Virus record (IMG/VR): IMGVR_UViG_2737471827_000008
Location: 1 to 21,396 of that record
Direction: 5' to 3' (one strand)
Source: a virus
Taxonomy: Duplodnaviria; Heunggongvirae; Uroviricota; Caudoviricetes
DNA: 21,396 nt
Positions 1-18,527 of the stretch are shown piece after piece. The number at the start of each line of letters is the position of its first letter. The stretch's first letter is position 1. A model generated the notes under the pieces. It was not told the origin of the DNA, ran no database searches, and saw only the letters and a program-made list of their open reading frames with translations. The position numbers and the translations under genes were made by a program.

Positions 1-1179
1 CTTTGCCAGTTTTGGGTACTCTTCGGCAGAAAAAGGTGCACCGTTGCATTTCAGCCAGCCTGTTGGTGGTGTGGCTGAAGGCCACGGAACAGGCACACCA
101 ACGGGTAACGCTGAGCCTTCTCCCAAACCAAGGTATGTGAGAAGACCAGCTACATCCTTTCCACTCAAATTGGTAAGCGTATTGTCCAGCGGTTGTTTAC
201 CTGCCAGCGCATTAAGCATTGTCGTGGCAAAGTTCGGATCATTCCCCAGTGCCGCCGCCAGTTCGTTCAGTGTATCCAGTGCAGCAGGTGCAGAACCCAC
301 CATTCCTGCAATCGCCGATTTCACAAAAGCCGTAGTGGCAATCTGTGTATTGTTGACCGACTGCGCCGCCGTGGGGGCTGTTGGCGTTCCGGTGAGTGCC
401 GGACTCGACAACGGTGCTTTTAGTGCCAGCGCATTGTTAATGGTGGTACTGAAATTCGGATCATTGTTAATGGCTGCGGCTATTTCTTTCAGCGTGTCCA
501 GCGTGGCTGGCGCACCATTAATAAGGGCCGTCAGTGCCGCCTGTACAAACGCAGTGGTCGCAACCTGCGTGGTATTATTCCCCGCCGCTGGCGTTGGCGC
601 TTTGGGGGTTCCGGTAAATGTCGGGCTGGCTTTTGGCGCGTACTGTGAATGCGGGTCCGGTGCGGCAAGATGTTTTGCCATCTGATCATCCGCGTACACC
701 TTCAGCTCCAGTGCCTTGTCATCCACATACTTGCGGGTTGCCAGCACTACAGCAGGGTCGATTTTCAGGGTGATATTGTCCGTGCTGCTGGTAATCAGCA
801 CCATGCGCACGGTCTGAGTGCGCCCGCTACCTTCAGCCAGTTGCGGCTTATAGCTTTCCGGGCAGTTGCCCACGGCAATCAATGCCCCTGACTCATCAAA
901 CAGGCCCACTTCACGTATCCACCAACCGCCCTCGTTTTCAGGGATCACCTGTTCGGCAATAATCTGGCTGCTGTTCTGCGGGTCGATATAAAGCATATTC
1001 AGCGCAGCCCGGCGTTTCTCATTTACCAGTGCCGTCTGCTTTGCGTCCGGCGTTGGCAATACTCCACCGCCATCGCCCACCGCCATATGGGTAATTTTTA
1101 GCGGCACACCGAGCGCGGCGGCGCTGGCAAGTTTCGCCGCGCCAATATCCGTCAGCAGGGTATAAAATTTTGTGCTCAT
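1..1179 (-). CDS. H: Tail fibre protein (P2 gpH-like), N-terminal about 393 codons; gene runs off the left edge
   Basis: Minus-strand frame open from ATG at 1179 to position 1 (translates MSTKFYTLLTDIGAAKLA...), matching the conserved N-terminus of P2-family tail fibres. ATGA start/stop overlap with upstream gene I. The plus-strand ORFs at 44-891 are its antisense shadow. Confidence 0.8.
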   Translation of the reverse strand, partial: MSTKFYTLLTDIGAAKLASAAALGVPLKITHMAVGDGGGVLPTPDAKQTALVNEKRRAALNMLYIDPQNSSQIIAEQVIPENEGGWWIREVGLFDESGALIAVGNCPESYKPQLAEGSGRTQTVRMVLITSSTDNITLKIDPAVVLATRKYVDDKALELKVYADDQMAKHLAAPDPHSQYAPKASPTFTGTPKAPTPAAGNNTTQVATTAFVQAALTALINGAPATLDTLKEIAAAINNDPNFSTTINNALALKAPLSSPALTGTPTAPTAAQSVNNTQIATTAFVKSAIAGMVGSAPAALDTLNELAAALGNDPNFATTMLNALAGKQPLDNTLTNLSGKDVAGLLTYLGLGEGSALPVGVPVPWPSATPPTGWLKCNGAPFSAEEYPKLAK

Positions 1180-1781
1180 GGATTCACTCTCATTGTGTCA
1201 ATAACATGGACCGCCCCGCCTTCATGCGCGGTGCCACCGGAAATAATCGTTTCGTTGATATACGGATAGATCGTGATTTCTTCGCCAAGATAGCTGGCGG
1301 CTCCCACCCAATGCGGGCCGCTGGTCTGCAGATTGATGGACATGCCGATCATGTGGCGGCTACATGGTTTGGCATCGCTTATCAGTCGCTCAAGTTCCAG
1401 ATAGGTATCTTCAGTGATGCCCTGGTCCTGCACGCCGATATCCAGGCGAAACGTGCCCGGTGTTTCTCCGGTCTGCCACCACTCAATAATGCGGATCAGG
1501 AATCCGAACGGCTCCACCACCCGCCGCACGGCACTGGTGGTCCCTTTATGCTGATGAATATAAAAAGCATCCTTCACCACCTGGCGCTTGACGCTTTCTG
1601 TCCAGCCCTCGTCCCAGCGATCCACAGAGAACGCCCAGGCGAGATAAGGCAGGAAACTGACCGGACAGGTTGCCGGATTCCACAAATCACGAAGCGGCAC
1701 CTGCAGATCAGAAATCCCGCTGCAGGTTTGCGCCAGTCGGCGCTCCAGTGGTGTTGAACCCGGTGGCAGCAGACTATTCAT
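1176..1781 (-). CDS. I: Baseplate/tail protein I (P2 gpI-like)
   Basis: 201 aa ORF with N-terminal LLPPGSTPLERRLA motif typical of gpI; sits between J and H as in P2 and overlaps both neighbours. Confidence 0.75.
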   Translation of the reverse strand: MNSLLPPGSTPLERRLAQTCSGISDLQVPLRDLWNPATCPVSFLPYLAWAFSVDRWDEGWTESVKRQVVKDAFYIHQHKGTTSAVRRVVEPFGFLIRIIEWWQTGETPGTFRLDIGVQDQGITEDTYLELERLISDAKPCSRHMIGMSINLQTSGPHWVGAASYLGEEITIYPYINETIISGGTAHEGGAVHVIDTMRVNP

Positions 1782-2556
1782 CCGTTCCTCCGTTGGTTAC
1801 GCTCCACTGCGTACATGATGCCGCCTGTGTTTTGTTCAGGACCACATCCGCCAGAGGAGAAGCCAGCTCCACACGCTGCACCCCCTCAACATGCAGTGCG
1901 GCAAAGATGGCGCTACGGCGAATATCCCGACCAAGACGCGTCTGACTGGCGATGTACTTCTGCAGGCTGGCTTTTGCCGCTGCCATTACCGGCTCTGCTT
2001 CCGGTCCAGGATAGAGAAAAATGGTGGCTTCCACGCGATACGGGATGATTTCTGCGCTGCGAACCGTAAGACGGTCAGCCACCGGGCGGACGTTCTCACT
2101 GTTCAGAGCTTTTTCCACCACGTCCAGCAGGTCTTTTTCTGCAGTTCCATCGCCTTCGCGGCTAAGGACAGTCAGCACCACCTCTGCAGGTGCCGGGCTG
2201 GTTGCACTGGCATCCGCCACCCGACCGTCGGCGCTTCGGGCATGAAATTCATAAGCTGCAGTTGGCCCCGCAACAGAAAGCCCTTCAAAGGCTGCAGGCA
2301 CACGCAGGCGCAACGCTTCATCGCTTTCCATCACAGCTGCAACGGGCGGCACAGCATCATTATCAGCAGGCGTCACCGTCAGGCGTGTCACGTTGTAGTT
2401 GGCAGCGAGCTGGTCAAGATCGCCGCCCATCGCGTAAGCCACCATCACCGCCTGCGCGGCTTCGTTAATGCGCTGGCGCAGAAGCAACTCACGGTAAGCG
2501 TTCTCCTGCAACAATTTAGTGACGGGTTCAGATTCCAGTTCCAGCGTGCGGATCAC
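1774..2556 (-). CDS. J: Baseplate assembly protein J (P2 gpJ-like), N-terminally truncated; only a GTG start, possible pseudogene
   Basis: 260 aa ORF resembling the gpJ family as I recall it (P2 gpJ about 302 aa). Frame is open upstream only to a TAA at 2605-2607, with no ATG. Its GTG overlaps the stop of the R fragment. Confidence 0.6.
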   Translation of the reverse strand: MIRTLELESEPVTKLLQENAYRELLLRQRINEAAQAVMVAYAMGGDLDQLAANYNVTRLTVTPADNDAVPPVAAVMESDEALRLRVPAAFEGLSVAGPTAAYEFHARSADGRVADASATSPAPAEVVLTVLSREGDGTAEKDLLDVVEKALNSENVRPVADRLTVRSAEIIPYRVEATIFLYPGPEAEPVMAAAKASLQKYIASQTRLGRDIRRSAIFAALHVEGVQRVELASPLADVVLNKTQAASCTQWSVTNGGTDE

Positions 2557-2696
2557 TGCTTCCTGCTCATCTTTCGGATGGCCCCCGTGGCAACCAGCGA
2601 ACCGTTATCCACAAACAGATGCAGTTTGTCCGGGTTATTGCGAACATAAGGCACCGCTTTATTGAGGGCGTGGCGCAGGGATTGTGGTTTGTTCAC
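2553..2696 (-). pseudogene. R: Tail completion protein R (P2 gpR-like), N-terminal 47-codon fragment
   Basis: GTG start at 2696 preceded by AGGAG. Translation VNKPQSLRHALNKAVPYVRNNPDKLHLFVDNGS... resembles the gpR N-terminus as recalled, then diverges and stops after 47 codons (P2 gpR about 155 aa). Confidence 0.4.
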
Positions 2697-2949
2697 TGTT
2701 TCGCTCCTGACACGCAATAATCATGTCCACTTTGTCTGCACAGACCGCCCAGGCGGCCTCCGTTTCATCCAGCAACGCATTCAGATCACCGTTAGTGCGC
2801 GGTGCTGCCTGCTCCAGCCGACACGGCGTCACTCGCGGACAACCACTGACGGTAAGCTGCACCTCCGGTGAGCGTCGGACGTTCCCGCAGCCGGATAATG
2901 TCAGCAGGCAAAGGAGTATCAGCCCAGCGGCGTAAATCCTCGTTCTCAC
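2659..2949 (-). CDS. lysC: LysC-like outer-membrane spanin lipoprotein (Rz1-like), overlapping lysB in another frame
   Basis: 96 aa ORF with signal peptide and lipobox LTLSG|C. Begins inside lysB in a different frame and extends past it, the P2 lysB/lysC overlapped-spanin arrangement. Start is GTG, so the exact start is uncertain. Confidence 0.55.
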   Translation of the reverse strand: MRTRIYAAGLILLCLLTLSGCGNVRRSPEVQLTVSGCPRVTPCRLEQAAPRTNGDLNALLDETEAAWAVCADKVDMIIACQERNSEQTTIPAPRPQ

Positions 2950-3220
2950 GTTTCAGTTTCTCAATCCGGCGTTGTCGTTGTCTCAGCAGTGCGCTGGTCT
3001 GTTCTGCTTCGGCATAGAGCCGCGCCTGCTCCCGGTTATTGGTTTCAGTCAGAATGGACAGGCTGATAAGCTGGCTGTTGCTCTTTGCCAGTGCCTGGCT
3101 TTTGCTCTGCAGCTCGTCTGCCTGCGTGCTAATGGTCTGGCTGGCATCAGCCAGCCGCCACGTCTGCCAGCCCAGAGCCGCCAGTAATAACGCCAGCACA
3201 ACCAGCAGCAACCGGTTCAT
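2792..3220 (-). CDS. lysB: LysB-like inner-membrane spanin (Rz-like)
   Basis: 142 aa with an N-terminal transmembrane segment (LLLVVLALLLAALGW) followed by a charged coiled-coil-like region; ATGA overlap with lysA. Confidence 0.65.
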   Translation of the reverse strand: MNRLLLVVLALLLAALGWQTWRLADASQTISTQADELQSKSQALAKSNSQLISLSILTETNNREQARLYAEAEQTSALLRQRQRRIEKLKRENEDLRRWADTPLPADIIRLRERPTLTGGAAYRQWLSASDAVSAGAGSTAH

Positions 3221-3594
3221 GCTGCTACCTGTTGCGCCATCTGATTACGGGTGATCCAGAAGGCAATAACGGTCAGTAGATAAAAGACCAGGGTAATAGC
3301 CCACCCCGTCCATGCGAGACTTACAACAATCAGCAATCGCATCACCCAACTGATAAATACGTTTTCTTTTCGGGTAATTGTCTTCAGCAAAGATGCCCTT
3401 AACTCCTGCCAGAGCGGGCCATTCTGAATTAACGCAGCCAGTGCTACCGGAATTACCGCCCATGTCAGCAAACAGGCTACCCAAACGCCGGACGCTGCCA
3501 GTACCGGAAAGATCCCCTGCGGATACACCATTGCTGCGATTAACAGCGCCATCCATAACATCAGAAACAGTCCGCTGATTAATTTCTTTTTCAT
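3217..3594 (-). CDS. lysA: LysA-like polytopic membrane protein (lysis timing)
   Basis: ATG at 3594 (MKKKLISGLF...) with GGGAG upstream; about 125 aa with four hydrophobic segments; sits where P2 lysA sits, downstream of the endolysin. Confidence 0.55.
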   Translation of the reverse strand: MKKKLISGLFLMLWMALLIAAMVYPQGIFPVLAASGVWVACLLTWAVIPVALAALIQNGPLWQELRASLLKTITRKENVFISWVMRLLIVVSLAWTGWAITLVFYLLTVIAFWITRNQMAQQVAA

Positions 3595-3595
3595 T

Positions 3596-4108
3596 TCAGT
3601 TTGCTCCCTGTAAACACCAGGCCATCTCCCGCGCACGGCGGTTATCCAGCCCCTGATTAAACACACCTTTTACATAAACCCAGCGCGGCAACTGTCGGCA
3701 CGCATCCGCCCAGCGCCGCTGATTGAGCAATTTCACCAGCGTGGAGCTGCAGGCATTGCCTGTCCCCACGTTGAAGGCAAACGACACCACCGAGTCATAC
3801 ACCTTTTGTGGCGGCTGTTGCTTCACACATCTTTCCAGCGCCCGCTCCACACGCAGCACGTTGGAGATAAGCCCTTCTGCTGCCTGTCGTTCCGTAATGG
3901 TTTTGCCGGGAATGACGCCCGACGTATTACCAATGCCGTCAGTCCATACACCCGCGCTGCACTGATACGGCTGCAGACGACAGCCTTCGTAATCGGCAAT
4001 CAGTTTCAGTCCCTCCACGGAGGTGTGAAGCTGCTGAAAACCCGGCAGCGTGGCAGCAATAGCCAGCACGGTCCCGACAAGGCAGCGTTTAACGATTGAT
4101 GGATTCAT
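3596..4108 (-). CDS. Endolysin, T4-lysozyme-like fold with an N-terminal SAR (signal-anchor-release) segment; phage 21 R / P1 Lyz type
   Basis: 170 aa; weakly hydrophobic Gly/Ala-rich N-terminus (VGTVLAIAATLPGF) followed by lysozyme motifs (YEGCRLQPYQCSAGVWTDGIGNT...FAFNVGTGN...RRW). Confidence 0.8.
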   Translation of the reverse strand: MNPSIVKRCLVGTVLAIAATLPGFQQLHTSVEGLKLIADYEGCRLQPYQCSAGVWTDGIGNTSGVIPGKTITERQAAEGLISNVLRVERALERCVKQQPPQKVYDSVVSFAFNVGTGNACSSTLVKLLNQRRWADACRQLPRWVYVKGVFNQGLDNRRAREMAWCLQGAN

Positions 4109-4304
4109 AGTCCTCCCGCGAGATCTGCCCGTCGCGCAGAAGCTGGTAGGCTTTGTGTTTGTAGTACCAGTTGATAGCCAGCATCAGCACACCAATCATC
4201 AGGCCGCCCAGCGTTGAGGCATCCTTGATGGACAAATCGCCCAGCCAGGCCAGCACAACGGCGATGCAGTACGTGATAAAGGCGCTGATTCGCTCAAGCG
4301 TCAT
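4089..4304 (-). CDS. Holin, probable pinholin-type (two transmembrane segments, charged C-terminus)
   Basis: 71 aa with two hydrophobic helices and a basic/acidic tail; immediately upstream of, and overlapping, the SAR endolysin gene. Confidence 0.6.
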   Translation of the reverse strand: MTLERISAFITYCIAVVLAWLGDLSIKDASTLGGLMIGVLMLAINWYYKHKAYQLLRDGQISREDYESINR

Positions 4305-4307
4305 AAT

Positions 4308-4511
4308 TCAGTCCCATAGCTGGACGGTCTGCACGGTGGTGGTTGTCGGAATGTCCGGCAGCTCCACCTGCAGCCCGTGAGGTAAAAAGGGGCCATATTC
4401 GGCAAGCCCCGGATTTGCCTTCAGTACCTGCTCCGTGACACCCTGCGTGCGCCCGTAATGACGCCAGCAAAGCGCGTCCACCGTGTCATACTGATGCGCA
4501 CGCACTTTCAT
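4308..4511 (-). CDS. X: Tail protein X (P2 gpX-like)
   Basis: 67 aa, same size and position as P2 gpX; ATGA overlap with gene L. Confidence 0.7.
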   Translation of the reverse strand: MKVRAHQYDTVDALCWRHYGRTQGVTEQVLKANPGLAEYGPFLPHGLQVELPDIPTTTTVQTVQLWD

Positions 4512-4975
4512 CAGATAAGCTCCACTGTGCAGTGCGGCGCGTCCTGTACCCGGCTGATGGCCCAGCGGGCGTCACGCCATAAATCACCGCTGGCTTCCGC
4601 CAGTTCCTCGCCCCGCTTCACACCGGATGCCGTGGCGTCATAGTCCTGGTAACGTTCGTTGAGCATGGCGCGTGCCCAGCAGTAAACCGCGTTGAAATAG
4701 TGCTGAATGCGCTCACTTTTGCCGTCCAGCTGTTCCGCCGGAACCTCTGCCAGCGAGGCATACCCCAGCATCTGCTGGCGTCTGCGAAACTCATACAGCT
4801 CTGCGTTGACCTCCGAAATTGCCGACAGCGCAACCTGCTTTAAACGCGGCTGCGTCACCGTGCCGTCAGTGCGCATGACACTGCGAAACTCCGACAGGTC
4901 CACATCAGGCCAGAACGGCGTATTTCTGATGATTTCCGCCTGTTCCGGTGCCTGTTCTGGCGCAACAAACTTCAT
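4511..4975 (-). CDS. L: Head completion/stabilisation protein (P2 gpL-like)
   Basis: Start placed at ATG 4975 (MKFVAPEQ...) with AGGAGA upstream; the 5038 ORF start is a GTG with no RBS. Position after M matches P2. Confidence 0.75.
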   Translation of the reverse strand: MKFVAPEQAPEQAEIIRNTPFWPDVDLSEFRSVMRTDGTVTQPRLKQVALSAISEVNAELYEFRRRQQMLGYASLAEVPAEQLDGKSERIQHYFNAVYCWARAMLNERYQDYDATASGVKRGEELAEASGDLWRDARWAISRVQDAPHCTVELI

Positions 4976-5070
4976 GCTGCTTTCTCCTGAAATAGAGGGC
5001 GGTGGACGGGGTTTTGATGTGGCAGTGCCTTTCGCCACCCCGTGCCGCCCGTGCGCGGGGGCACGTTCTG

Positions 5071-5721
5071 TCAGCGGCTGTCATTGCGCAGTCTGCGCTC
5101 CAGCTGCTGTTTGTCTTTTTTCACGCCACAGCGGGGATCGAGCTGTAACGCATGGTTGAGATGATTAAGGGCAGACGCCGGATTGCTTTCACTCAGGACC
5201 GCGCCAATCGCTTTATGCAGACGCGCCCGTGACTGGTCCGGCATATCCAGACCGTCTGTCAGCTCCAGCGTCTGCAGCAACAGATCGGCATCAAAGCCGG
5301 TGGTGGCAAGCATTGCGCTCTGCGCGGCGTCTGCCATTTCCTCTGCCAGCACGGTCTGCACGTTGCGGTTACCCAGCGGCATCACCCAGCCATGACGCAG
5401 GGCATGACGCCCGATCTCCAGCGCTCCGGCATAATCTCCGGCATCAATGCGCCACAGCATCACGTACATCAGCACGTCATCCTGTTGAGCGCCTCCGGCA
5501 GCCAGGACACCCTCTGCCCAGGCGGCGTACTTCGGCAGCAGCTCCACCTTGATTTCCGCTTTTTTGACCGTGGACTGAACGCCCTTGAGACGGCGGCGGT
5601 CTTCCGCCAGTTGCAGCAGCATCAGGTCATAGCCCGATGCGTGGCGAACACTGCCGCCCTCGCGGGCGGCCTGTTCAGCCTGAACGCGCAGGCGATGCTG
5701 CCGTGCGGGACTCAGGCTCAT
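5071..5721 (-). CDS. M: Terminase endonuclease (small) subunit (P2 gpM-like)
   Basis: 216 aa ORF in the gpM position between L and N; sequence resembles the gpM family as recalled. Confidence 0.8.
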   Translation of the reverse strand: MSLSPARQHRLRVQAEQAAREGGSVRHASGYDLMLLQLAEDRRRLKGVQSTVKKAEIKVELLPKYAAWAEGVLAAGGAQQDDVLMYVMLWRIDAGDYAGALEIGRHALRHGWVMPLGNRNVQTVLAEEMADAAQSAMLATTGFDADLLLQTLELTDGLDMPDQSRARLHKAIGAVLSESNPASALNHLNHALQLDPRCGVKKDKQQLERRLRNDSR

Positions 5722-5724
5722 GGA

Positions 5725-6783
5725 TTACGCTCCGGTTTCGGCTGCGGCGGCGCTGAAATCACCAATCTGGATGTTTTCCACCAGTGCGGCGCAGCGGTAG
5801 TCCTCAACCACATAGGCTTCATTAACGGATTCAAAGTTTTCAATCCGGTCACGTTTCGGGTTGTCGATAACCGAACGACGGCGGGTGTCTTCCTGCCAGT
5901 AGATGGACAGGTTATCCAGACGGGTGATCAGCAGCGCATTCGGCGGGAAGAACGGCGCACGCACGGCCTGCAGGCCACCCATGCGTTTCTGACTGATGAT
6001 CATATCGGCAGCCAGTTTTTCACTGTTTTCCTGCTCTTTGTTGACCAGCGGGAAATACTTGTCAGACAGCAGTTCACGACCGCAAATCACAACCAGATCG
6101 TCATCGTCCTGATAGACCACGTCGATAAGCTCGTTAACGGCATCCATCACCACGGCGTCCAGGTTGGCATATTCGCCACCTTTCCCGACTTTCACCGCAC
6201 CCGGTGTGGTTTCACCGCCCGTGGTGGTGCTGCCCATGACGTGATCCGGTGCATCCTCACGGATTTTCTGCAGCCAGCCTTTATTCACATCCTGCAGTAG
6301 CGGGTTTTCGCTACGGTTGGAGGTTTTCGCACGCTTCACGCCGTTAAAGCCGATCATGATGCGGTCCAGTGCCTGACGTTTCACGATGGCGTTACGGATA
6401 CGCACCTGGAAATCCTGAAACTTCGCCCACAGGTCCAGCTTCGCGTAGGTCAGCACGGTGTCAAAGTTGGTCTGTTCGCATTTGTATTCCACATCGACCA
6501 TCAGCGTCGGATCGACAGGTTCACGCTCTTTCGCGGTGGTGTCAGTGGTTCCGGCAATGGTGCTGCCAACACCCATCCCCAGCAGCTGACCGGACTGCTC
6601 AGTCACTGGCGTGACGTTAATCAGCGTCAGGAAAGCGGCGGACTGCTGGATCTGGTCTTCCAGCGTCTGCTGCACAGACGGCTCTACAGTGAACTTGCTG
6701 GACAGTTCTTCAACTGCCACACCGTTCAGACGCGCCAGCTGCTGCAGGTAAGCGTTAAAAGCAAAGCGGGTATTCTTCTTCAT
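5725..6783 (-). CDS. N: Major capsid protein (P2 gpN-like)
   Basis: 352 aa (P2 gpN about 357 aa) in conserved position; GGAG RBS upstream. Confidence 0.85.
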   Translation of the reverse strand: MKKNTRFAFNAYLQQLARLNGVAVEELSSKFTVEPSVQQTLEDQIQQSAAFLTLINVTPVTEQSGQLLGMGVGSTIAGTTDTTAKEREPVDPTLMVDVEYKCEQTNFDTVLTYAKLDLWAKFQDFQVRIRNAIVKRQALDRIMIGFNGVKRAKTSNRSENPLLQDVNKGWLQKIREDAPDHVMGSTTTGGETTPGAVKVGKGGEYANLDAVVMDAVNELIDVVYQDDDDLVVICGRELLSDKYFPLVNKEQENSEKLAADMIISQKRMGGLQAVRAPFFPPNALLITRLDNLSIYWQEDTRRRSVIDNPKRDRIENFESVNEAYVVEDYRCAALVENIQIGDFSAAAAETGA

Positions 6784-6799
6784 CGGGTTTTGTGCTCCA

Positions 6800-7633
6800 T
6801 CAGCAATTGGTCAGAGTGTCAGCGGGGGCGTTACCGCCTGTTGCACGCTGGCGGTAGTCCTGGCGGCTGTCTTCATGACTCAGCTTGTCCACCAGTTCGT
6901 TAAAGGCGGTTTGCTGTGCCTGCAGGGCAGTCTCCAGCTCAGACAGGCGTTCTTCCTGCTCAGACAGGGATTTTTCGGTGCGTGCGCTCAGGTTCTGCTG
7001 CTCAGTGGCGACCAGCTCCACGGCCTTATGCACATCAGAGAACCGGGCGTCATCGGACTGCTCTTTTTTGGTAAACAGCGCCGTGACGCGGGCAAACAGG
7101 GACGGTTTGTCGTCCTGGATTTCTTCCAGTTCGATCACCGTTTCCTCTGCAGCGGTAAAGAGATTGGCAGGATTCTGCTTGCGGTTTGCCAGCGGGTTAT
7201 GGGCTGCACTGGCGCTGAATGTCAGCATTTCCGTACCCAGACTGGCGGGATCATCAGTGGCAGCCAGGCCGACCAGGTAGGCTTTGCCCGTATCAGCAAA
7301 CTTCGGGCTGACTTCCATAGAGGTGAATAATTTCTGTCCTTTTTTCACCAGTTCCACCAGGGACTCCGTTGGCTCAACGTCGGCATACAGCGCCATCTTG
7401 CCTGCCAGCGGGCCTTCCGTGATTTCTTCAGCAAACAGCGCCGTCACCTTGCCGTAGCGGTTAAAGGTGCTGTCCGGCAGATAAGACTTGATGTGCTCAA
7501 GGTTAATCAGCGCGGTATACACCGCCGGGTTGTAGCTGGCTGCCATCTGTTCCAGCCATTCACGCTGGATTTCGCGTCCGTCGGTGGTGGCACCTTCCAC
7601 CCCGATGCGAAAACGCTTTGCTTTCACTGTCAT
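6800..7633 (-). CDS. O: Capsid scaffolding protein (P2 gpO-like)
   Basis: 277 aa with a charged, helical C-terminal half; first gene of the minus-strand late operon, divergent from P. Confidence 0.8.
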   Translation of the reverse strand: MTVKAKRFRIGVEGATTDGREIQREWLEQMAASYNPAVYTALINLEHIKSYLPDSTFNRYGKVTALFAEEITEGPLAGKMALYADVEPTESLVELVKKGQKLFTSMEVSPKFADTGKAYLVGLAATDDPASLGTEMLTFSASAAHNPLANRKQNPANLFTAAEETVIELEEIQDDKPSLFARVTALFTKKEQSDDARFSDVHKAVELVATEQQNLSARTEKSLSEQEERLSELETALQAQQTAFNELVDKLSHEDSRQDYRQRATGGNAPADTLTNC

Positions 7634-7775: not shown

Positions 7776-9542
7776 ATGAACACCACACTGACACCCGCAG
7801 ATCTCGATCCCCGTCGGCAGGCCATGCTGCTGTACTTTCAGGGATACCGCGTAGCCCGCATTGCTGAAATGCTGGGCGAGAAAGTTGCAACCGTTCACAG
7901 CTGGAAAAAACGCGACAAGTGGGGTGATTATGGGCCGCTGGATCAGATGCAGCTCACCACCGCCGCACGCTACTGCCAGCTCATCATGAAGGAGCACAAA
8001 GAAGGGAAAGATTTCAAAGAGATTGACCTGCTGGCGCGCCAGTCGGAACGCCACGCGCGGATCGGCAAGTTTAACAATGGCGGCAACGAAGCCGACTTAA
8101 ACCCTAACGTCGCCAACCGCAACAAAAGCCCGCGCCGTCAGCCGGAAAAGAACGTTTTCACCGATGAACAGATTGAGAAGCTGGAAGAAATTTTCCATTC
8201 CTCCATGTTCAACTACCAGCGCCACTGGTGGGAAGCCGGAAAAACCAACCGCATCCGCAACCTGCTGAAGTCACGCCAGATCGGCGCGACCTTTTACTTT
8301 GCCCGTGAAGCCCTGATTGACGCCCTGCTTACCGGACGTAACCAGATTTTCCTTTCCGCCAGTAAGGCACAGGCCCACGTCTTTAAACAGTACATCATCG
8401 ACTTCGCCAAAGAAGTGGAGGTGGAGCTGAAAGGCGATCCGATGGTGCTTCCCAACGGGGCCACGCTTTACTTCCTCGGCACCAATGCCCGCACTGCCCA
8501 GAGTTATCACGGCAACCTGTATCTGGATGAATATTTCTGGATACCAAAATTCCAGGAGCTGCGCAAAGTGGCTTCCGGTATGGCTATTCACAAAAAATGG
8601 CGACAAACCTATTTTTCCACGCCATCCAGCCTGACACACAGTGCTTATCCGTTCTGGTCCGGTGCGCTGTTCAACCGTGGGCGCAACAAAGCCGATAAGG
8701 TGGACATCGACCTGTCCCACAGCAATCTGGCCCCCGGCCTGCTGTGCGCAGACGGGCAATACCGCCAGATAGTCACCGTGGAAGATGCGGTGCGCGGCGG
8801 CTGTAACCTGTTCGACCTTGACCAGTTGCGCATGGAGTACAGCCCGGACGAATACCAGAACCTGCTGATGTGCGAGTTCGTGGACGATCTCGCGTCCGTG
8901 TTCCCGCTCAGCGAGCTGCAGGCGTGCATGGTGGACAGCTGGGAAGTCTGGACCGACTTTCATGCACTGGCTCTGCGCCCCTTTGGCTGGCGCGAAGTGT
9001 GGATCGGTTATGACCCGGCAAAAGGTACGCAAAACGGCGACAGCGCCGGATGCGTAGTGGTGGCACCGCCAGCCGTGCCGGGCGGTAAGTTCCGCATTCT
9101 TGAGCGTCACCAGTGGCGCGGGATGGACTTCCGCGCCCAGGCTGACGCCATCAAAAAACTGACCGAACAGTACAACGTGACATACATCGGCATCGACTCA
9201 ACTGGCGTCGGCCACGGGGTTTACGAGAACGTGAAAGCATTCTTTCCTGCCGTCCGGGAGTTTGTCTACAACCCCAACGTTAAAAACGCCCTGGTACTCA
9301 AGGCCTACGACATTATCAGTCACCGCCGCCTAGAATTTGACGCCGGACACACCGACATTGCGCAGTCATTCATGGCAATCCGTCGCGCCACCACCGCCAG
9401 CGGCAACCGCCCGACCTATGAAGCCAGCCGCAGCGAAGAAGCCAGCCATGCCGATCTGGCCTGGGCAACAATGCACGCACTCTTTAACGAACCGCTGCAG
9501 GGCGAGTCCGCCAATACCAGCAATATTGTGGAGATTTTTTGA
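7776..9542 (+). CDS. P: Terminase ATPase (large) subunit (P2 gpP-like)
   Basis: 588 aa; N-terminus MNTTLTPADLDPRRQA... resembles gpP as recalled; divergent from O, followed by Q. Confidence 0.9.
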   Translation: MNTTLTPADLDPRRQAMLLYFQGYRVARIAEMLGEKVATVHSWKKRDKWGDYGPLDQMQLTTAARYCQLIMKEHKEGKDFKEIDLLARQSERHARIGKFNNGGNEADLNPNVANRNKSPRRQPEKNVFTDEQIEKLEEIFHSSMFNYQRHWWEAGKTNRIRNLLKSRQIGATFYFAREALIDALLTGRNQIFLSASKAQAHVFKQYIIDFAKEVEVELKGDPMVLPNGATLYFLGTNARTAQSYHGNLYLDEYFWIPKFQELRKVASGMAIHKKWRQTYFSTPSSLTHSAYPFWSGALFNRGRNKADKVDIDLSHSNLAPGLLCADGQYRQIVTVEDAVRGGCNLFDLDQLRMEYSPDEYQNLLMCEFVDDLASVFPLSELQACMVDSWEVWTDFHALALRPFGWREVWIGYDPAKGTQNGDSAGCVVVAPPAVPGGKFRILERHQWRGMDFRAQADAIKKLTEQYNVTYIGIDSTGVGHGVYENVKAFFPAVREFVYNPNVKNALVLKAYDIISHRRLEFDAGHTDIAQSFMAIRRATTASGNRPTYEASRSEEASHADLAWATMHALFNEPLQGESANTSNIVEIF

Positions 9543-10579
9543 TGGGAAAGAGTAAGAAGAACCGCGCTGCGGCGACGAAACAGAGCCAGCTTAAAAGCCA
9601 GACTACAGCCGAAGCATTCAGCTTCGGTGATCCCATTCCAGTACTTGACCGCCGCGAACTGCTGGACTATGTGGAATGCGTACAGACAGATCGCTGGTAT
9701 GAGCCTCCTGTCAGCTTTGACGGACTGGCGCGCACCTTCCGCGCTGCTGTGCATCACAGTTCCCCGATTGCAGTAAAGTGCAACATTCTGACCAGTACCT
9801 ACATCCCTCACCCGCTGCTCAGCCAGCAGGCTTTTTCACGTTTTGTGCAGGACTATCTGGTATTTGGTAACGCCTACCTGGAGAAACGCACGAACCGCTT
9901 CGGTGAAGTTATCGCCCTTGAACCGGCCCTGGCAAAATACACCCGACGCGGGTTAGACCTGGATACCTACTGGTTTGTGCAATACGGTATGACAACACAG
10001 CCGTATCAGTTCACGAAAGGCAGCATCTTTCATCTGATGGAACCGGACATTAACCAGGAGATCTACGGCCTGCCCGGCTATCTTTCTGCCATTCCGTCAG
10101 CCCTGCTCAATGAGTCCGCCACGCTGTTCCGCCGTAAGTATTACATCAACGGCAGCCATGCAGGCTTCATCATGTACATGACCGACGCCGCGCAGAATCA
10201 GGAGGATGTGAACAATCTCCGCAACGCGATGAAAAGCGCCAAAGGTCCAGGCAACTTCCGCAACCTGTTTATGTACTCGCCTAACGGCAAAAAGGACGGC
10301 CTTCAGATCATCCCTTTGTCAGAAGTTGCGGCGAAGGATGAGTTTCTGAATATCAAAAATGTCAGCCGCGATGACATGATGGCAGCACATCGCGTTCCGC
10401 CACAGATGATGGGGATTATGCCAAATAATGTTGGGGGTTTTGGGGATGTGGAGAAGGCTAGTCTTGTATTTGTTCGCAATGAATTGATGCCACTACAGAA
10501 GCGACTACATGAACTAAACGAATGGGTGGGTGCAGAAGTAATACGTTTTGATGACTATGTTTTAGGTGTTCAGGAATAA
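9542..10579 (+). CDS. Q: Portal protein (P2 gpQ-like)
   Basis: About 345 aa; ATG at 9542 overlaps the P stop (TGATG). Confidence 0.85.
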   Translation: MGKSKKNRAAATKQSQLKSQTTAEAFSFGDPIPVLDRRELLDYVECVQTDRWYEPPVSFDGLARTFRAAVHHSSPIAVKCNILTSTYIPHPLLSQQAFSRFVQDYLVFGNAYLEKRTNRFGEVIALEPALAKYTRRGLDLDTYWFVQYGMTTQPYQFTKGSIFHLMEPDINQEIYGLPGYLSAIPSALLNESATLFRRKYYINGSHAGFIMYMTDAAQNQEDVNNLRNAMKSAKGPGNFRNLFMYSPNGKKDGLQIIPLSEVAAKDEFLNIKNVSRDDMMAAHRVPPQMMGIMPNNVGGFGDVEKASLVFVRNELMPLQKRLHELNEWVGAEVIRFDDYVLGVQE

Positions 10580-10582
10580 AAG

Positions 10583-10610
10583 AAAAGGCGCTAATCTCAG
10601 CGCCTTTTAT
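10583..10610. terminator. Bidirectional intrinsic terminator between convergent Q and the STAS-like gene
   Basis: aaaaGGCGCTaatctcAGCGCCtttt: 6-bp GC-rich stem flanked by A-run and T-run. Confidence 0.6.
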
Positions 10611-10625
10611 CTAACTAACCATATA

Positions 10626-10964
10626 TTAACAAACGGCGTATAAACCATCAAATCCAACGGAATGAACCTTTTTTGATGCTACTTCATTACTACGGCGTTG
10701 GATCACTTTTGCAATACTTTTTAAAATTGAAGGGGGTGCATTGCGAACCTTAACTTGACTCAAAACTTTGGTTACACCGAATTTCACTACCAAAACACCA
10801 AAGATTTCATCAGAGTATGATTCTGAAATTGAATAAACACCGCTCAGATCTAAATCTACGGTATACCCTTCTTTAATGAACCCTTCAATCTTGTGTCGTT
10901 GGGGGATAGCCTGATTGCGCGAAGCCAGGTCACCCTCGGGTAACTTGTATGCGATTTTGTTCAT
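10626..10964 (-). CDS. STAS-like (anti-sigma-antagonist fold, DUF4325-like) small protein; second gene of the accessory operon
   Basis: 112 aa containing VDLDLSGVYSISESYS, resembling the DLSGV/Ser-rich loop of RsbV/SpoIIAA-type STAS domains. ATG overlaps the stop of the upstream gene (TAATG); AGGAGG RBS embedded in the upstream gene's 3' end. Confidence 0.5.
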   Translation of the reverse strand: MNKIAYKLPEGDLASRNQAIPQRHKIEGFIKEGYTVDLDLSGVYSISESYSDEIFGVLVVKFGVTKVLSQVKVRNAPPSILKSIAKVIQRRSNEVASKKVHSVGFDGLYAVC

Positions 10965-11938
10965 TACTCTCCTCCTAACGCCCGCATTATTTCCATAAGC
11001 TGAGGGTCATTTTCTTCGCTATCTTTATCGACTGCCAGTTCATGAATCTTAAAACGGCAAGAAATTGCTACACCCGGCCATTCAGTACGTAATTCAGTAT
11101 AGCTCACTTCATCACCTATTGCTTCTAAGCATACATTTCCTGAAGCCAGTTGCAATTCCCCATTATATGTTTTTATCAATTTCATCAAGTGATACAACCC
11201 AAGCCCTTGATGATTATTATCTTTTTCTTTGACCGAAACCCCGTGGCCAAACACACTACCCCCAATAAAGTCCTGGGGAAGCTGCTGTGCCCAATCATCC
11301 TGCAAATCAGCATGCTTAGATGAATGTCCCTCTTGAATACACCATGCGATCGCATCCTGGTGAGTCTCAATTCCGGGTATACCAGCTCGCCGCAATTCTC
11401 GGAGAAATCCTAACCCACAGTCCGCCAAAGAAAATTCTAAATAGTGCTCTTTTTTTTGAGTGTGGGGTACAGCCGAACGTTGTGCAAAAGAAAAACCCGT
11501 TGATTTTCCATGCGACCAAACGTTATCGTGAAGCTCACCTATAACATGGGTTAGATCTGTAAGTCCCTTGGGACAATCTCTCGGATCACGATCAGGGAAT
11601 GTTAACTGCCTTACACAACTGTTAATACTACCAGTGGCAACGTCAACAGCTTCAACATTGGTTAATGCTGTAACCAAACTGTAATTTCTTCCAACATTTA
11701 CACGTTCCTGTTGATACTGATCCTCTCCCCATAAAGCACCATGTAAATTGATAGCTCGCATATAGCCAGGGCATGACAAAACACAGTTATCTTCGGTAAT
11801 TTTGTGATGATTCACGTAAGCTGCTAAGACAGTGATAAAACCAGGATGCCAATGATTGTTTGGCAATTGCAATTCATTAGTTTCCTTTTGATGAAACGCA
11901 GCGGTATGCACAATAGCGTCTTTTAATCCTAACCCCAT
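10964..11938 (-). CDS. GHKL-family (HATPase_c, RsbW/histidine-kinase-like) ATPase/kinase with an N-terminal domain of unknown function, about 120 aa
   Basis: 324 aa. Bergerat-fold motifs readable in translation: N-box IGELHDNVWSHG, G1 box LADCGLGF, G2 box HQGLGLYHL. AT-rich relative to flanking late genes. Confidence 0.6.
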   Translation of the reverse strand: MGLGLKDAIVHTAAFHQKETNELQLPNNHWHPGFITVLAAYVNHHKITEDNCVLSCPGYMRAINLHGALWGEDQYQQERVNVGRNYSLVTALTNVEAVDVATGSINSCVRQLTFPDRDPRDCPKGLTDLTHVIGELHDNVWSHGKSTGFSFAQRSAVPHTQKKEHYLEFSLADCGLGFLRELRRAGIPGIETHQDAIAWCIQEGHSSKHADLQDDWAQQLPQDFIGGSVFGHGVSVKEKDNNHQGLGLYHLMKLIKTYNGELQLASGNVCLEAIGDEVSYTELRTEWPGVAISCRFKIHELAVDKDSEENDPQLMEIMRALGGE

Positions 11939-11967
11939 GAACCGAACCTTTTTTATGCATTTTTCTT

Positions 11968-11996
11968 ATCATATAACTTAGGACTGATCAGCGCAA
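11968..11996 (-). promoter_or_regulatory. Candidate sigma70 promoter for the GHKL/STAS operon
   Basis: Minus strand TTGCGC-17 bp-TATGAT (forward 11991-11996 and 11968-11973), about 30 bp upstream of the 11938 ATG; spacer contains a GATC. Confidence 0.3.
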
Positions 11997-12056
11997 AGCT
12001 CCCGACACTATTGAATCATACTAAATTAAGGCCTATACCACACAGCACAGCGCGCG

Positions 12057-12075
12057 CTCGTATCCCCGCCACGCC
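12057..12075 (-). other. cos-like sequence (candidate cohesive-end site)
   Basis: Minus strand reads GGCGTGGCGGGGATACGAG. The first 13 nt match the 19-nt cohesive end of phage 186 as I recall it (GGCGTGGCGGGGAAAGCAT); flanked by a CATG-rich repeat region. Confidence 0.35.
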
Positions 12076-12548
12076 TGCCCGCTTTATGTAGTAGTTTTCA
12101 TGCACCTGCATGACATGAGCAAAAGCTCGCCAGTTCTGGCATGTCTTAGCCAAACCGATCCTCAAACGATCATGCGAACTCATGCAGCATAGACATGCAT
12201 GACATGAAAATCGGTCAAACCTTGAAACCAGTCATAAATATGAGCCAGCTTAATACACACTAAATAGCTGCGTCTAATACTGCTACACCTGCCGTTTACT
12301 GACATGTGGCATGTCGCGTAAGGACAACATACTGTAGGCCAGATACAGCAGGATCAGGCGAAGAAAACGGCCCCACGCCTTACCCAGCAAGGGCCAAGGG
12401 CTAACCGAAAGTGGAGCATTATTCCGCGCAGTTATTTAGTGTCAGCTCTTTTGAGCTAAAATCAAGTTTCAACATGAGGGTCTGTGCAGGCTTTCTCATC
12501 CCGCTAATTTATACAGCACACCTATATGGCTATGAGTTTGTCATGCCC

Positions 12549-12580
12549 GCTAATCCTGTTAGGATTAGCCTTGTTTTTTT
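12549..12580 (+). terminator. Perfect 9-bp inverted repeat with T-tract (intrinsic-terminator-like hairpin), 18 bp upstream of the lipoprotein ATG
   Basis: GCTAATCCT-gtt-AGGATTAGC followed by cttgttttttt. Confidence 0.35.
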
Positions 12581-12597
12581 ACGATTGGGATAGGGAT

Positions 12598-13404
12598 ATG
12601 AAGAAATTAACTGGCGTAATTGCTTTTGCTCTGCTGCTTACTGCTTGTGACAAACCGAAGATCGATGCATCAAGCGATCAGTCGATGAAAGAGTCCATTC
12701 AAAAAGTAAGAGAGTCCTTACCTGCAGATAAAAAAGCTCAGTTTGATGATGCAGTTAAAGTCGTTGCCTTTAGCCAAATCAACATGAGAGAGCTAATGCA
12801 GGCTGGAACGTCTTCTGGGGACGTCTACGAAACAAAAATTAAGTCAGCGCTGGAAGGTAAAACTGGTGATGAGGTTATAAATTACGCACAAACTATTCGC
12901 CTTGAGCGTGAGAAGAGAGAGAAAGAACAGGCTCTGCAAGAAATAAAAGAACTGGAAGCCAAACAAACCTCTGCAACACAGGCTGCGGAAAAAATGAAAG
13001 CCTTCAAGGTCGAACGTTCCCGTTTTTATTTCCAGAAAGAGGATTACGGCAATGATCAGCCAATTCTGGATATTAGCGTTGAAAACGGAACAGACAAAGC
13101 GGTTGCCAGAGTATTCTTCAAAGGAGTTATTGCCAGCCCAGGAAGAAGCGTCCCTTGGTTCTCTGACGTCTTCAACTATAAAATTTCTGGAGGTCTGGAA
13201 CCAGGTGAGAAAGCCAACTGGAAATTAGCCCCTAATAGATACTCTGATTGGGGAAAACTTAAAGTTCCGGCTGATGCTATATTTACCGTCACAGTCATTG
13301 GCCTTGAAGACGCAGATGGGAAATCGATCTATGGTGACGCCGAGTTTTCAGAACGCGATGCTGACAGACTGAATCAACTTAGAGATAAGTACCTTTCTAA
13401 ATAA
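12598..13404 (+). CDS. Lipoprotein of unknown function (accessory gene)
   Basis: Start placed at ATG 12598: MKKLTGVIAFALLLTA|CD is a classical lipoprotein signal peptide with Asp at +2 (inner-membrane retention rule). About 268 aa mature, charged, coiled-coil-like middle region. The ORF-track extension from 12526 runs through the terminator-like hairpin. Confidence 0.6.
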   Translation: MKKLTGVIAFALLLTACDKPKIDASSDQSMKESIQKVRESLPADKKAQFDDAVKVVAFSQINMRELMQAGTSSGDVYETKIKSALEGKTGDEVINYAQTIRLEREKREKEQALQEIKELEAKQTSATQAAEKMKAFKVERSRFYFQKEDYGNDQPILDISVENGTDKAVARVFFKGVIASPGRSVPWFSDVFNYKISGGLEPGEKANWKLAPNRYSDWGKLKVPADAIFTVTVIGLEDADGKSIYGDAEFSERDADRLNQLRDKYLSK

Positions 13405-13428
13405 TCAAAATTAAAGCTACTTCAGCAT

Positions 13429-13455
13429 AGTCCCTGAGAATATATATCAGGGACT
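13429..13455. repeat. 9-bp perfect inverted repeat between the two lipoprotein genes
   Basis: AGTCCCTGA-gaatatata-TCAGGGACT; no T-tract follows. Confidence 0.3.
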
Positions 13456-13512
13456 ACCAAATCACGGCAGATACCCCTTAGTTAAATAATGCTAAACGCT
13501 TAGAAAGAGACC

Positions 13513-13812
13513 ATGAAACGTATAACTTTCTCCTTTACGTTAGTAGCAATCATCATAGCCTTAGCTGGATGTGCTTTGCCAGATAAAGACGGCGACTTCG
13601 GAGCTTATGTTCATGCCTGTCAGCAATATGCATACGGAAAATCCTATGCCTTTGAGAATAGAGACTTCGCGTATAAGGTCTGTAAGGACGCGGCGAAACT
13701 GTGGAGTGAAGAAGTTCCTGGCTATATCATCAGGCAAATTCAACTACATCCTGAAATACCCAGCGAAGAAATTAAATATGCAGCCATGGCCGGCTCTTTG
13801 GGTAACAACTAA
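13513..13812 (+). CDS. Small lipoprotein of unknown function (accessory gene)
   Basis: 99 aa; signal peptide with lipobox LAG|C (MKRITFSFTLVAIIIALAGCA...); three further Cys in the mature part. Confidence 0.55.
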   Translation: MKRITFSFTLVAIIIALAGCALPDKDGDFGAYVHACQQYAYGKSYAFENRDFAYKVCKDAAKLWSEEVPGYIIRQIQLHPEIPSEEIKYAAMAGSLGNN

Positions 13813-13825
13813 ATCAACTTATGAG

Positions 13826-13849
13826 AAAGGGGCTTAATGCCCCTTTTCG
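13826..13849. terminator. Intrinsic terminator between convergent lipoprotein gene and the LexA-controlled small gene
   Basis: aaAGGGGCttaatGCCCCTtttc. Confidence 0.55.
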
Positions 13850-13879
13850 GTTCCCTTATCAAGTCCTAACGAAACAAGC

Positions 13880-14068
13880 TCAACTGATTACATCCATCGA
13901 CCTACTGTATTCATGGCTTCGAATTTTCGCCATCAACTCATCAGTCAATTCAGAAACCCACTGCAGAGCTAGCCCCTTCTCTTCATCACTACACTCACTA
14001 GCCGCTACAAGCTTAAGAAAAAAATCAATGCGCTGGAGCTTCAAAGACTCCAAAAAATAGTCCTGCAT
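13880..14068 (-). CDS. Small protein (62 aa) behind a LexA box; candidate SOS-inducible antirepressor (Tum-like position)
   Basis: ATG at 14068 (MQDYFLESLKLQ...) preceded by AGGAGG with 4-nt spacer. Immediately downstream of gene A, same strand, where phage 186 carries tum. The longer ORF-track version (start 14170) would include the promoter. Confidence 0.5.
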   Translation of the reverse strand: MQDYFLESLKLQRIDFFLKLVAASECSDEEKGLALQWVSELTDELMAKIRSHEYSRSMDVIS

Positions 14069-14109
14069 CTTTCCTCCTATAACACCATACGCAATACTGT
14101 ACATATAAC

Positions 14110-14152
14110 CACTGTTTATATTTACAGTATATAATAATCTTACTGATGTAAA
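14110..14152 (-). promoter_or_regulatory. LexA (SOS) box overlapping a candidate promoter
   Basis: caCTGTttatatttACAGta at 14110-14129 fits CTGT-N8-ACAG with an AT-rich spacer. On the minus strand a TTTACA (-35-like, 14147-14152) and TATACT (-10-like, 14126-14131) overlap the box. Confidence 0.55.
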
Positions 14153-14221
14153 ACGTTTTTTTACGTTCATCAGCCTGATATGCCTGGTATTATTAAGAGC
14201 ACGAATTGTTAACCCGCGTGA

Positions 14222-16636
14222 TTAATACAGGTTCCGCCACTTATCATCTTCCTGCAAACGCTGGTTCCGATAGAAGATACGCAGGCCTGCTCCTGACGGA
14301 ATACTGCCACCGCAAAGGAGCAAATCGACCTCTTTCTCGCTGCCATCAAATCCTCTGGACTTCAGTTCATAGACGAGCTGCTGACGCTGATACTCTGTAA
14401 TTCGCTGTTTGTAGTCTTTACGCCGTTTCGGTTTAACCAGGCGCAATCTTGCTGCCAGTTCCCGGCGCTCTTTTTTGCTCATACTGTGCAGGTAATCGTG
14501 CAATTCCTTGTCATCCATGCAGGTAATGTCCGTTCTGGTATCCCCATCTGCTGATTCATCTTTCTCATGTTGGTTCAAATTTTCAGCAAGGGGACAGTTA
14601 TTGCCACGAGTCCAAGGGGCGCAAGCGCCCTGGTCGGCTGCCGCCTCCTGAACATCAACGGCCTTACGAACCATTTTCCACTTCACGGCATGAGTGCAGA
14701 TCTTGCCCTCTGCAATAGGTGACCAGATGCCATAAATACGAATGCCGTGATCGCCATAGGCGGTCGGCTCTTCGTTGATTTCATAAGCGGTTCTGATGAG
14801 GTGATATTTGCGGGGAACCAGTACGCCGCCCTGCTTCATGATGTAGGTGGCAAAACAACCAGCATCAGCAGCAGCCAGGATGGCATCAAGGCGCGGGTTA
14901 TCCAGTACCGGCGCACCTGCTTTTTTGTCCCCCTGTTGCCTTGCCGCCTGACCAGCCAGCAATCGCAGTTCACGGTAAGCCTGACGCCCCGGAATGCCAA
15001 AGAAGCGGAATTGCTGAACACGATGCAGAGACGCCCAGGCATTAACGTATTCAGCATTATCACGCAGGGATTTCCCCGTTTCCTTGCTGATCTCGCCAGC
15101 CAGACCACGCCCGTCAATGTTCTTACTGATGTATTTCGCGATGTAGCTTGTTGGCGTACCTTTGCGCGGGTTAATCAACTCAGACTTAAAGCGCGGCCCA
15201 GTGTTATTGCCCAGTTCCTCGCGGTCTTCACGGATGGCAAACTTACGCAGTAATGCAGTGATGGCGCGGCGGTCTTTTTTGCGCATAAAACACAACAGGT
15301 GCCAGTGAACTGTACCGTCATGATGCGGCTCAGCCACCCGCACGCCATACCACCGCAATCCGGCTTTGTGCATCGCCTTACGAAATGCAGCAAACATGCC
15401 GACCAGATAATCACTGCTTTGTCTTACCGTCGCATTTGTCCAAGTTGGGTTGGGCCTGCCATTATTTAGCGTGGAATGGAAACGTGACGGACAGGTGATG
15501 GTGTAGAAAACGGCGCAGTCACCGCGCATTTCCGCGATAAGCTCCAGGCCTTTAACACAGGCCATCATCTCATTGCGGCGATGCGCAGGGTTGCTGCTGC
15601 TGGCGTTTACCACATCCTCCATGTCCAGCGTGTCGCCGTCTTCGTTCACCAGTTCATGAGAACGAAAAAACTCCAGCGACTTACGGCGCTGCTCACGTTT
15701 ATGCATCACGGCTTCATAGCTGACATAAGGAGATGCTTTTTTGCTAACCAGGCAGACAGCGCGCAACTGCTCTTCCCGCCATTCGCAACGCATCTTCCAT
15801 AATTTCCGATACCACCAGTCGGCGCACAACATACGCGCCAGCGAACCCGGAATGAGTTCATAGGGCACGGGTTTACGGCGGTTTCTTTTCCGGCGGAGTT
15901 GCTCAAACGCAGGAGGAATGACATCCAGACGCAGGGTTTCCGCCGCCACCCTTTCCCATGTCTTGCGGATTTCTTCTGGCTTAACGTCATCGGTGGCATA
16001 CAAATCGCCACAAGCTGCATCAAGACACATGCTCATATGCGCAGCAACAAGGGTGGACAGGCGTTTCACCTGATCCTGACTCATTTCAGGCAGGATCAGC
16101 AGGCCGTCCAGCCCTTCATGGCTTGCCATAAAGCGAAAAGAAGTGGATAGCTGACTCTCGCGTACATGCTCTAGTCGTTCCAGACATTGCTTAATCGTCT
16201 CACGTAAATAGCGGGAATAAGCCTTTGGCCTGCCCAGGCTGCTGAAATATTCAATACGTTGCATCAGCGGCTTGCTGATATGGGAAGGCTGGGCGTTGAC
16301 GTCAGTCAGAATGACCATGTCTGGATTAAAACGCTGCTGCTCATGCGCCATCTTTGCCCGGCTAATGAGCTTATCCTGCTCCATTTCGCGTTGGACAGGA
16401 TCACGGGATTCATTAAAGAAATAACGCTCCCAGACCTGATCACTCAGTGCCTCGCGGCGCAGTTGTTCCTGCTCGTTATCGGTAGCGTACAGAGTGATCA
16501 GGTTTGAAAGCGCAGAAACCGGCGCAACTTCCGCCGGGTCCAGATAAGGGTTAATGGCCTTTTTCGGGCTGTTCCATGAGAATGCTGCGGCGACCTCGTT
16601 AAAGCCGCTGCAGTTGTTCATATCAGCATGGCTCAT
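14222..16636 (-). CDS. A: Replication initiation endonuclease (P2 gpA-like rolling-circle initiator)
   Basis: 804 aa; HUH-like motif ([10 protein letters not shown]) and tyrosine-containing YIAKYISK region; stop/start overlap with upstream dam. Confidence 0.85.
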
Positions 16637-17947: not shown

Positions 17948-18014
17948 AATCAATTCTCCTGAATTTAGATAAAGGGATGCTCGGCGGGTTTACGCCATTA
18001 ATTTCATTAGTTGG

Positions 18015-18520: not shown

Positions 18521-18527
18521 AAGCACC

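Follow-up and report, generated by a model that had tools for sequence, protein, structure and literature searches.

Genome organisation

The window, i.e. the whole stretch of 21,396 nt that was analysed (IMGVR_UViG_2737471827_000008), contains a P2-type prophage with its late genes on the minus strand. These genes follow the P2-type order, in which Q-P is divergent from O-N-M-L-X-holin-lysozyme-LysA/B/C-R-S, followed by V-W-J-I-H-G. Except for a gap of 1,846 bp, the gene order is collinear with that of the annotated phage 500465-1 and three E. coli prophages. At the gap, remnants of genes R and J (designated R′ and J′) meet at a deletion junction. The features of this region are as follows:

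1–1179, minus strand: tail fibre gpH, truncated by the edge of the window after its first 393 residues (515 aa in the identical, longer contig L027)
1176–1781, minus strand: gpI (201 aa), a baseplate wedge protein; downstream neighbour, intact
1774–2580, minus strand: gpJ-derived sequence, codons 35–302 and the stop codon, without native start, ribosome-binding site (RBS) or promoter
1774–2556, minus strand: J′ open reading frame (ORF), 260 aa, from an internal GTG (Val43 of gpJ), the first usable start; called as a gene in Logan assemblies
2579–2580, not stranded: deletion junction; the two parental ends have the 2 nt ‘CA’ (minus strand) in common and 1,846 bp are missing
2553–2696, minus strand: R′ remnant ORF, 47 codons, with a GTG start at 2696 and TGA at 2553–2555, assigned from Pfam family PF06891 and comparison with the sister prophage
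2580–2696, minus strand: the true gpR-derived part of R′, codons 1–39 of 143, delimited by blastn and tblastn breakpoints
2659–2907, minus strand: lysC (Rz1-like spanin), the intact upstream neighbour, overlapping the R′ start

The family-specific proteins of the element include the GPO scaffold, a P2-family capsid protein, the gpA replication endonuclease, 186-type CI/CII and an integrase. They are full length and show 94–100% amino acid identity to annotated homologues; their Pfam assignments are given in the locus tables. Judged by this gene content and order, the element is a P2-like prophage (Peduoviridae, Wadgaonvirus-like) of E. coli. The lineage is common, the exact gpA being listed in ~54 collection blocks. 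In those of the gpA-bearing contigs shown that reach host DNA, rcdA/ybjJ/ybjI adjoin the prophage, and the ogr end of related prophages adjoins ybjL. The insertion site, as read on the int side in lineage-mates, is between rcdA and ybjL, and these flanking genes indicate that the host is E. coli or Shigella.

The set of virion genes is incomplete: S, V and W are gone, R retains 39 of 143 aa and J lacks 34–42 N-terminal residues. The element is integrated, carries an inactivating lesion and has an intact sister at 99.95% identity, as is characteristic of a prophage made defective by internal deletion. Two other classes of element were considered and rejected. A tailocin is a complete tail module without head genes, and a satellite is devoid of structural genes and hijacks a helper phage. 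Here, the head, terminase and portal genes are present and the tail is broken, which does not suit a tailocin; the retention of structural genes and the absence of P4-type genes from the element do not suit a P4-like phage satellite.

Structure of the deletion

A megablast search of window positions 1–5200 against phage records found Escherichia phage 500465-1 (NC_049342; Peduoviridae, Wadgaonvirus) at 99.1% identity in two pieces, which span 7,044 bases of that phage for 5,198 bases of the query. In the pairwise alignment, the two pieces meet in the window, overlapping by the 2 nt ‘CA’, and 1,846 bp of the phage sequence are absent. Alignment to three further prophages reproduces both the breakpoint and the 1,846-bp gap: those of E. 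coli NMBU-W12E19 and of avian pathogenic (APEC) E19025, the latter with six mismatches across window positions 125–7500, and the sister prophage L030 (GCA_964056085.1). Both flanks are gap-free and collinear with all four of these intact relatives. The result follows deterministically from the alignments, and chance plays no part in it. The first-pass annotation had proposed, from the letters of the window, that a single internal deletion joins the N-terminus of gpR to the C-terminus of gpJ, and the agreement of the four relatives on gap and breakpoint bears this out. It had placed the junction at about 2581–2600; the exact position is 2579/2580, with an ambiguity of 2 nt, so that the estimate was 1–20 nt off. 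The contrast in length that it described, about 2.5 kb expected and about 900 bp present, was right in substance: R start and J stop are 2,769 bp apart in the intact phage and 923 bp apart in the window.

In the coordinates of the sister prophage, the deletion takes out S, V and W completely, together with 73% of R and 11% of J. Codons 40–143 of gpR and 1–34 of gpJ have been removed; these losses from gpR and from the start of J come in addition to those listed at first, namely S, V and W. The absence of these three genes was confirmed by tblastn, which found no S, V or W match in the window, nor in the identical longer contig (L027), which runs through the tail genes from H to T; the proposed check for homologues elsewhere in the element is negative in those parts. 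As 1,846 is not a multiple of three, the R–J fusion is out of frame, and the gpR frame runs eight codons into out-of-frame J and then stops. The scar is very probably the product of one recent illegitimate deletion of 1,846 bp in the late region, with microhomology only.

Remnants of gpR and gpJ

The R′ GTG start at 2696 is preceded by AGGAG with a 7-nt spacer. Residues 1–39 of R′ are 100% identical to gpR of the intact sister prophage and match positions 1–39 of the 133 positions of the Pfam family P2_Phage_GpR (PF06891, E = 9e-12). Residues 40–47 (IRKMSRKQ) are encoded by gpJ DNA read in the wrong frame, after which the stop codon follows. A 47-codon ORF with a good RBS that begins like gpR and then diverges, as initially described, is accordingly present at exactly 2553–2696 on the minus strand. 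The 90% cluster of gpR contains other short entries, among them one of 47 aa that carries the name of Salmonella Typhi CT18; these proved to be partial sequences at contig ends with normal gpR sequence and were set aside.

The J frame resumes at His35 (HPKDEQEAVIRTLELESEP...). Of the 302 residues of gpJ, 268 are left, and they are 100% identical to those of the sister. The first reading had described a J-like frame one nucleotide out of frame and 260 aa long; it is indeed so, and it ends at the normal stop at 1774. Alignment of the 260-aa product to complete J proteins, which had been suggested as a check, covers only residues 43–302 of a uniformly 302-aa J, and the deletion reading stands. 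All listed named members of the J 90% cluster are 302 aa long, whereas the remnant corresponds to residues 35–302 only, with the Baseplate_J domains retained. The start of J′ overlaps the stop of R′ as GTGA, with a weak AGGA 4 nt upstream. A truncated gpJ might be made from the internal GTG by translational coupling; such a protein would find no baseplate to join.

Loss of a late promoter

In phage P2, transcription of the late operons PQ, ONMLKRS, VWJIHG and FI-FII-E-E′-T-U-D is driven by four Ogr-dependent promoters that conform to the consensus TGT-N12-ACA (PMC3931495). The S–V intergenic region deleted here holds a TGT-N12-ACA dyad, TGTATCAGCACTGATACA, which is present upstream of V in intact relatives. 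Given the layout of four promoters and four operons in P2, the dyad is by position the promoter of the V operon. The motif occurs five times in the whole window versus 5.3 expected, which is the chance level, and the promoter argument rests on the position upstream of V, not on enrichment. One copy of the motif is located in the divergent P–O intergenic region and none near the scar. J′-I-H-G have lost their own promoter, and read-through from the O operon upstream would be their sole route to transcription. In the intact phage, S ends with a weak terminator-like hairpin; hairpins of this kind number three versus 2.2 expected, which does not exceed chance. Scans for sigma-70 promoters and terminators around the scar found nothing above chance.

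Distribution and age of the deletion

Seven Logan contigs, from independent assemblies of SRA runs, encode both products (47 aa and 260 aa) in exact form. Of these, the contig from SRR25824655 was retrieved, and over 12,455 nt it matches the window with 100% identity. The junction 34-mer is also present in the NCBI assembly GCA_037039635.1 (the source of contig L027), which is 100% identical over 13,220 nt. A 201-nt junction probe searched against 5,426 complete E. coli genomes found the junction in none of them; the single full-coverage match in this set, NCTC9038, has a different deletion. The exact junction 34-mer had no match in GTDB species representatives, IMG/VR or JGI metagenomes. The intact sister (L030) differs by seven mismatches in 13.2 kb, and this proximity indicates that the deletion is very young. 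Taken together, these comparisons describe a recent, lineage-specific inactivating deletion.

Origin of the deletion

The scar could in principle be an artefact of assembly or sequencing, with the 1,846 bp truly present and collapsed in assembly. The sole hint of assembly trouble is that the Logan contigs break in H, at the crossover site of an invertible segment, 2.4 kb from the scar. The junction, however, is seen in seven Logan contigs and in a separate NCBI assembly, and its endpoints share just 2 nt, which leaves no substrate for a k-mer or repeat collapse; the missing interval is almost certainly not an artefact. Another potential cause is the Gin/Cin-type serine invertase of the prophage itself, which might have deleted the DNA between two direct quasi-crossover sites. 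The lineage encodes a resolvase/invertase beside an invertible tail-fibre segment, and a good crossover site is present in H at window positions ~118–143. Serine recombinases join DNA with a 2-bp overlap, and the exactly 2 nt of common sequence at the junction fit this. The endpoints, however, match the crossover site at nine and five of its 24 non-core positions, compared with 6.5 ± 2.0 for the background and 20–24 for true sites, and they are GC-rich, unlike the AT-rich AAACC..GGTTT core, which makes a deletion by the invertase extremely unlikely. Recombination between repeats was rejected as well: a search of the intact sequence found no direct repeat with a spacing of 1,846 bp or at the endpoints, and the ends have ‘CA’ alone in common. 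The best reading of the 2-nt microhomology is illegitimate recombination at the level of microhomology, which is how the deletion probably arose.

The crossover site in H is of the Gin/Cin/Hin type, TTCTCACATACC-TT-GGTTTGGGAGAA, at window positions ~118–143 with the core TT at 130–131. Window positions 1–131 match the APEC E19025 prophage in inverted orientation, within the alternative fibre segment beside the resolvase/invertase gene; the corresponding positions in L016 are 25804 and 27631. This inverted match indicates that the C-terminus of the tail fibre is invertible in the lineage and that the window has the orientation opposite to that of the APEC prophage. The crossover sites were located by reading the sequence together with a scan for matches; a search for inverted repeats with a 10-nt seed found none flanking an invertible segment. 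The Logan contig ends at window position 102, where mixed orientations probably broke the assembly.

Other genes of the element

Apart from the genes at the scar, the window encodes counterparts of 30 proteins annotated in the NMBU-W12E19 prophage, all of them full length and gap-free with 94–100% identity. Among them are the integrase (incomplete at the window edge), CI, CII, Fil, Dam, gpA, the portal, both terminase subunits, scaffold, capsid, gpL, gpX, holin, lysozyme, LysA, LysB, LysC, gpI and gpH. The statement in the first-pass annotation that the capsid, packaging, lysis, replication and immunity genes are intact holds, as it does for all 30 of the other window genes. The only other difference from the NMBU-W12E19 prophage is a swapped cargo block at ~10573–12048, in the gpA–gpQ hotspot. 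The identical contig (L027) reaches 7.2 kb past the window, and the genes found there have the same lengths as in intact relatives: gpH (515 aa), the sheath protein (390 aa) and the tube protein (171 aa). The same holds for E, E′, the invertase, the genes for tail-fibre assembly and the beginning of T.

The cargo genes are as follows:

10626–10964, minus strand: 112-aa ORF, DUF4325 (STAS-like)
10964–11938, minus strand: 324-aa ORF, no Pfam match
12526–13404, plus strand: DUF6694 lipoprotein, 292-aa ORF (annotated as 268 aa in relatives)
13513–13812, plus strand: 99-aa hypothetical protein

The first two genes form a pair situated in the gpA–gpQ (cos-proximal) hotspot, a documented site of anti-phage genes in P2-like phages. 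The pair is very widespread, the exact 324-aa protein being listed in 2,234 collection blocks. The PADLOC scan of the cargo returned no convincing match to a defence system; the DUF4325 protein has a weak partial match to a DrmA region (E = 4.7e-6). The pair is a candidate for an uncharacterised defence system. The DUF6694 and 99-aa genes are located between the pair and gpA, with the neighbouring phage genes on the other strand, and neither product has a PADLOC match.

In several related prophages (L006, L008, L009, L012; ~20150–20975), an extra minus-strand gene is present between S and V, encoding a 610-aa KAP-family NTPase, a 289-aa protein or a 429-aa protein. By comparison of these prophages, the S–V intergenic region, which is part of the interval deleted here, seems to be a second cargo hotspot. 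A larger deletion from an ancestor that carried an S–V cargo island was considered and rejected, since the nearest sister and the APEC relative have no such island and both give exactly 1,846 bp.

Many relatives (e.g. L006, L007 and L016) have a DinI-like gene after gpA. This gene has no counterpart in the window (best tblastn E = 0.48); the place concerned is ~13800–14220, downstream of gpA. The position after gpA is, we assume, that of the SOS-controlled antirepressor Tum in phage 186; if it is Tum's, the lineage may not be inducible by the SOS response. Induction may then depend on inactivation of CI or on high levels of a 73-aa protein encoded next to CI, at the Apl/Cox position.

Predicted consequences for the virion

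In phage P2, the tail is closed by six copies of gpR, which bind the head adaptor and the sheath via residues 123–125 and 142–145; gpV is the trimeric spike, and gpW, at the core of each wedge, initiates the sheath and is in contact with most of the baseplate proteins (bioRxiv 10.64898/2026.09.14.750843). [quoted passage not shown] Both groups of contact residues of gpR fall in the deleted part, and a full-length gpR domain is not encoded. The prophage would therefore be expected to lack the gpR terminator, the tail completion protein gpS, the gpV spike and the gpW sheath initiator, and gpJ would at best be truncated at its N-terminus. Without V, W and a proper J, the baseplate that starts tail assembly would be absent, and the loss of R and S would prevent completion of the tails. 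Given what is known of the roles of these proteins, infectious tails should be beyond the capacity of this prophage, as had been supposed.

The heads and tails of P2 assemble separately and are then joined. As the genes concerned are intact, lysogeny, replication, head filling and lysis should persist, and excision, replication, filling of heads and lysis of the cell would still be expected upon induction. What is released would be tailless, non-infectious heads, unless a co-resident P2-like phage were to provide tails.

An element that is defective alone could yet remain mobile if a co-resident P2-like prophage provided, in trans, complete tails or the products of R, S, V, W and J. The head, packaging, cos-proximal and lysis genes are intact, and carriers often hold more than one related copy, with a median of two and up to eight matching places per E. 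coli genome, each intact prophage copy contributing two such places; nothing within the window, however, points to a helper, and supply in trans is unlikely. A different fate would be domestication, i.e. a grounded prophage kept for its cargo and for superinfection immunity, the tail deletion merely fixing it in place. The cargo meant here is the pair of 324-aa and DUF4325 genes together with the DUF6694 lipoprotein, in the gpA–gpQ hotspot; it is intact and is situated in a documented anti-phage hotspot, and a 2026 survey has described defective P2-like prophages that keep conserved defence genes (PMC13586616). However, the deletion, at seven mismatches in 13.2 kb from the intact sister, is too recent for an effect of selection to be visible, the lysis genes, a danger to the host, have remained intact, and PADLOC does not recognise a defence system in the cargo, so domestication is also improbable. 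Very unlikely, finally, is a ‘head-only’ element that excises, replicates, packages and lyses while borrowing tails, a step towards satellite-like dependence, with J′-I-H-G rewired to the O-operon promoter; the observations give this reading no advantage over plain decay.

Comparison with other defective prophages

The sister prophage (L030) and phage 500465-1, which is 99.1% identical over the late region, have the same gene order from int to the tail genes as the window. The sister also shares the cargo of the window from the DUF6694 gene onward, which is where its locus begins. Unlike the window, both have full R (143 aa), S (148 aa), V (192 aa), W (119 aa) and J (302 aa), and the S–V promoter dyad. 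The functions lost here are the same as those lost in classical laboratory amber mutants of P2 in R, S, V, W and J. P2 tail-gene mutants produce DNA-filled heads but not functional tails; in baseplate mutants, tail assembly is blocked at its first step. The ambers, however, are single-gene point mutants made in the laboratory, whereas the window has a natural deletion affecting five genes and the loss of a late promoter.

Internal deletion is an ordinary and well-understood route to prophage decay, with many examples among P2-like prophages; in those compared here and in the defective elements of the 2026 survey (PMC13586616), the deletions affect morphogenesis genes. The remnant at ssrA in NCTC9038 has independently lost the R-to-W interval, from about codon 96 of R into W (~1.25 kb), and has further deletions. 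Prophage L017 (GCA_012382315.2) belongs to the same lineage and is 100% identical to window positions 8853–21396 (~12.5 kb), but it carries another, larger lesion that has removed everything from the middle of the terminase gene (mid-P) to the tail fibre gene (H). Two more relatives (L011 and L013) have lost most of their late genes and are more eroded than the element in the window. Compared with these four, the window element has a single lesion and is otherwise intact from the integrase gene to the start of T, and it represents an earlier stage of decay; the breakpoints differ.

For annotation, the element is to be recorded as a defective P2-like prophage, with the 47-aa and 260-aa ORFs as pseudogene fragments of gpR and gpJ and not as genes. 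It opens no new biological question. Its use lies in an unusually clean first step of decay, with a single lesion, an intact sister that differs by seven mismatches and a second lineage member whose deletion is a different one; such a series may be useful for studies of the rates and mechanisms of prophage inactivation, or the element may serve as a natural tailless producer of P2-type heads.

In the second lineage member (L017), positions 17095–17958 contain a 287-aa ORF that combines a tail-fibre Collar domain with the C-terminal domain of the terminase, followed directly by the invertase and sheath genes. As the fused parts come from opposite strands, an inversion–deletion near the invertible segment may have occurred there. 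In a related prophage of E. coli 13TMH22 (CP019256), an insertion sequence with a 404-aa rve-family transposase is located at the R/S boundary (L026, 10908–12121), cutting R to 133 aa; it is another independent lesion in the tail-completion region.
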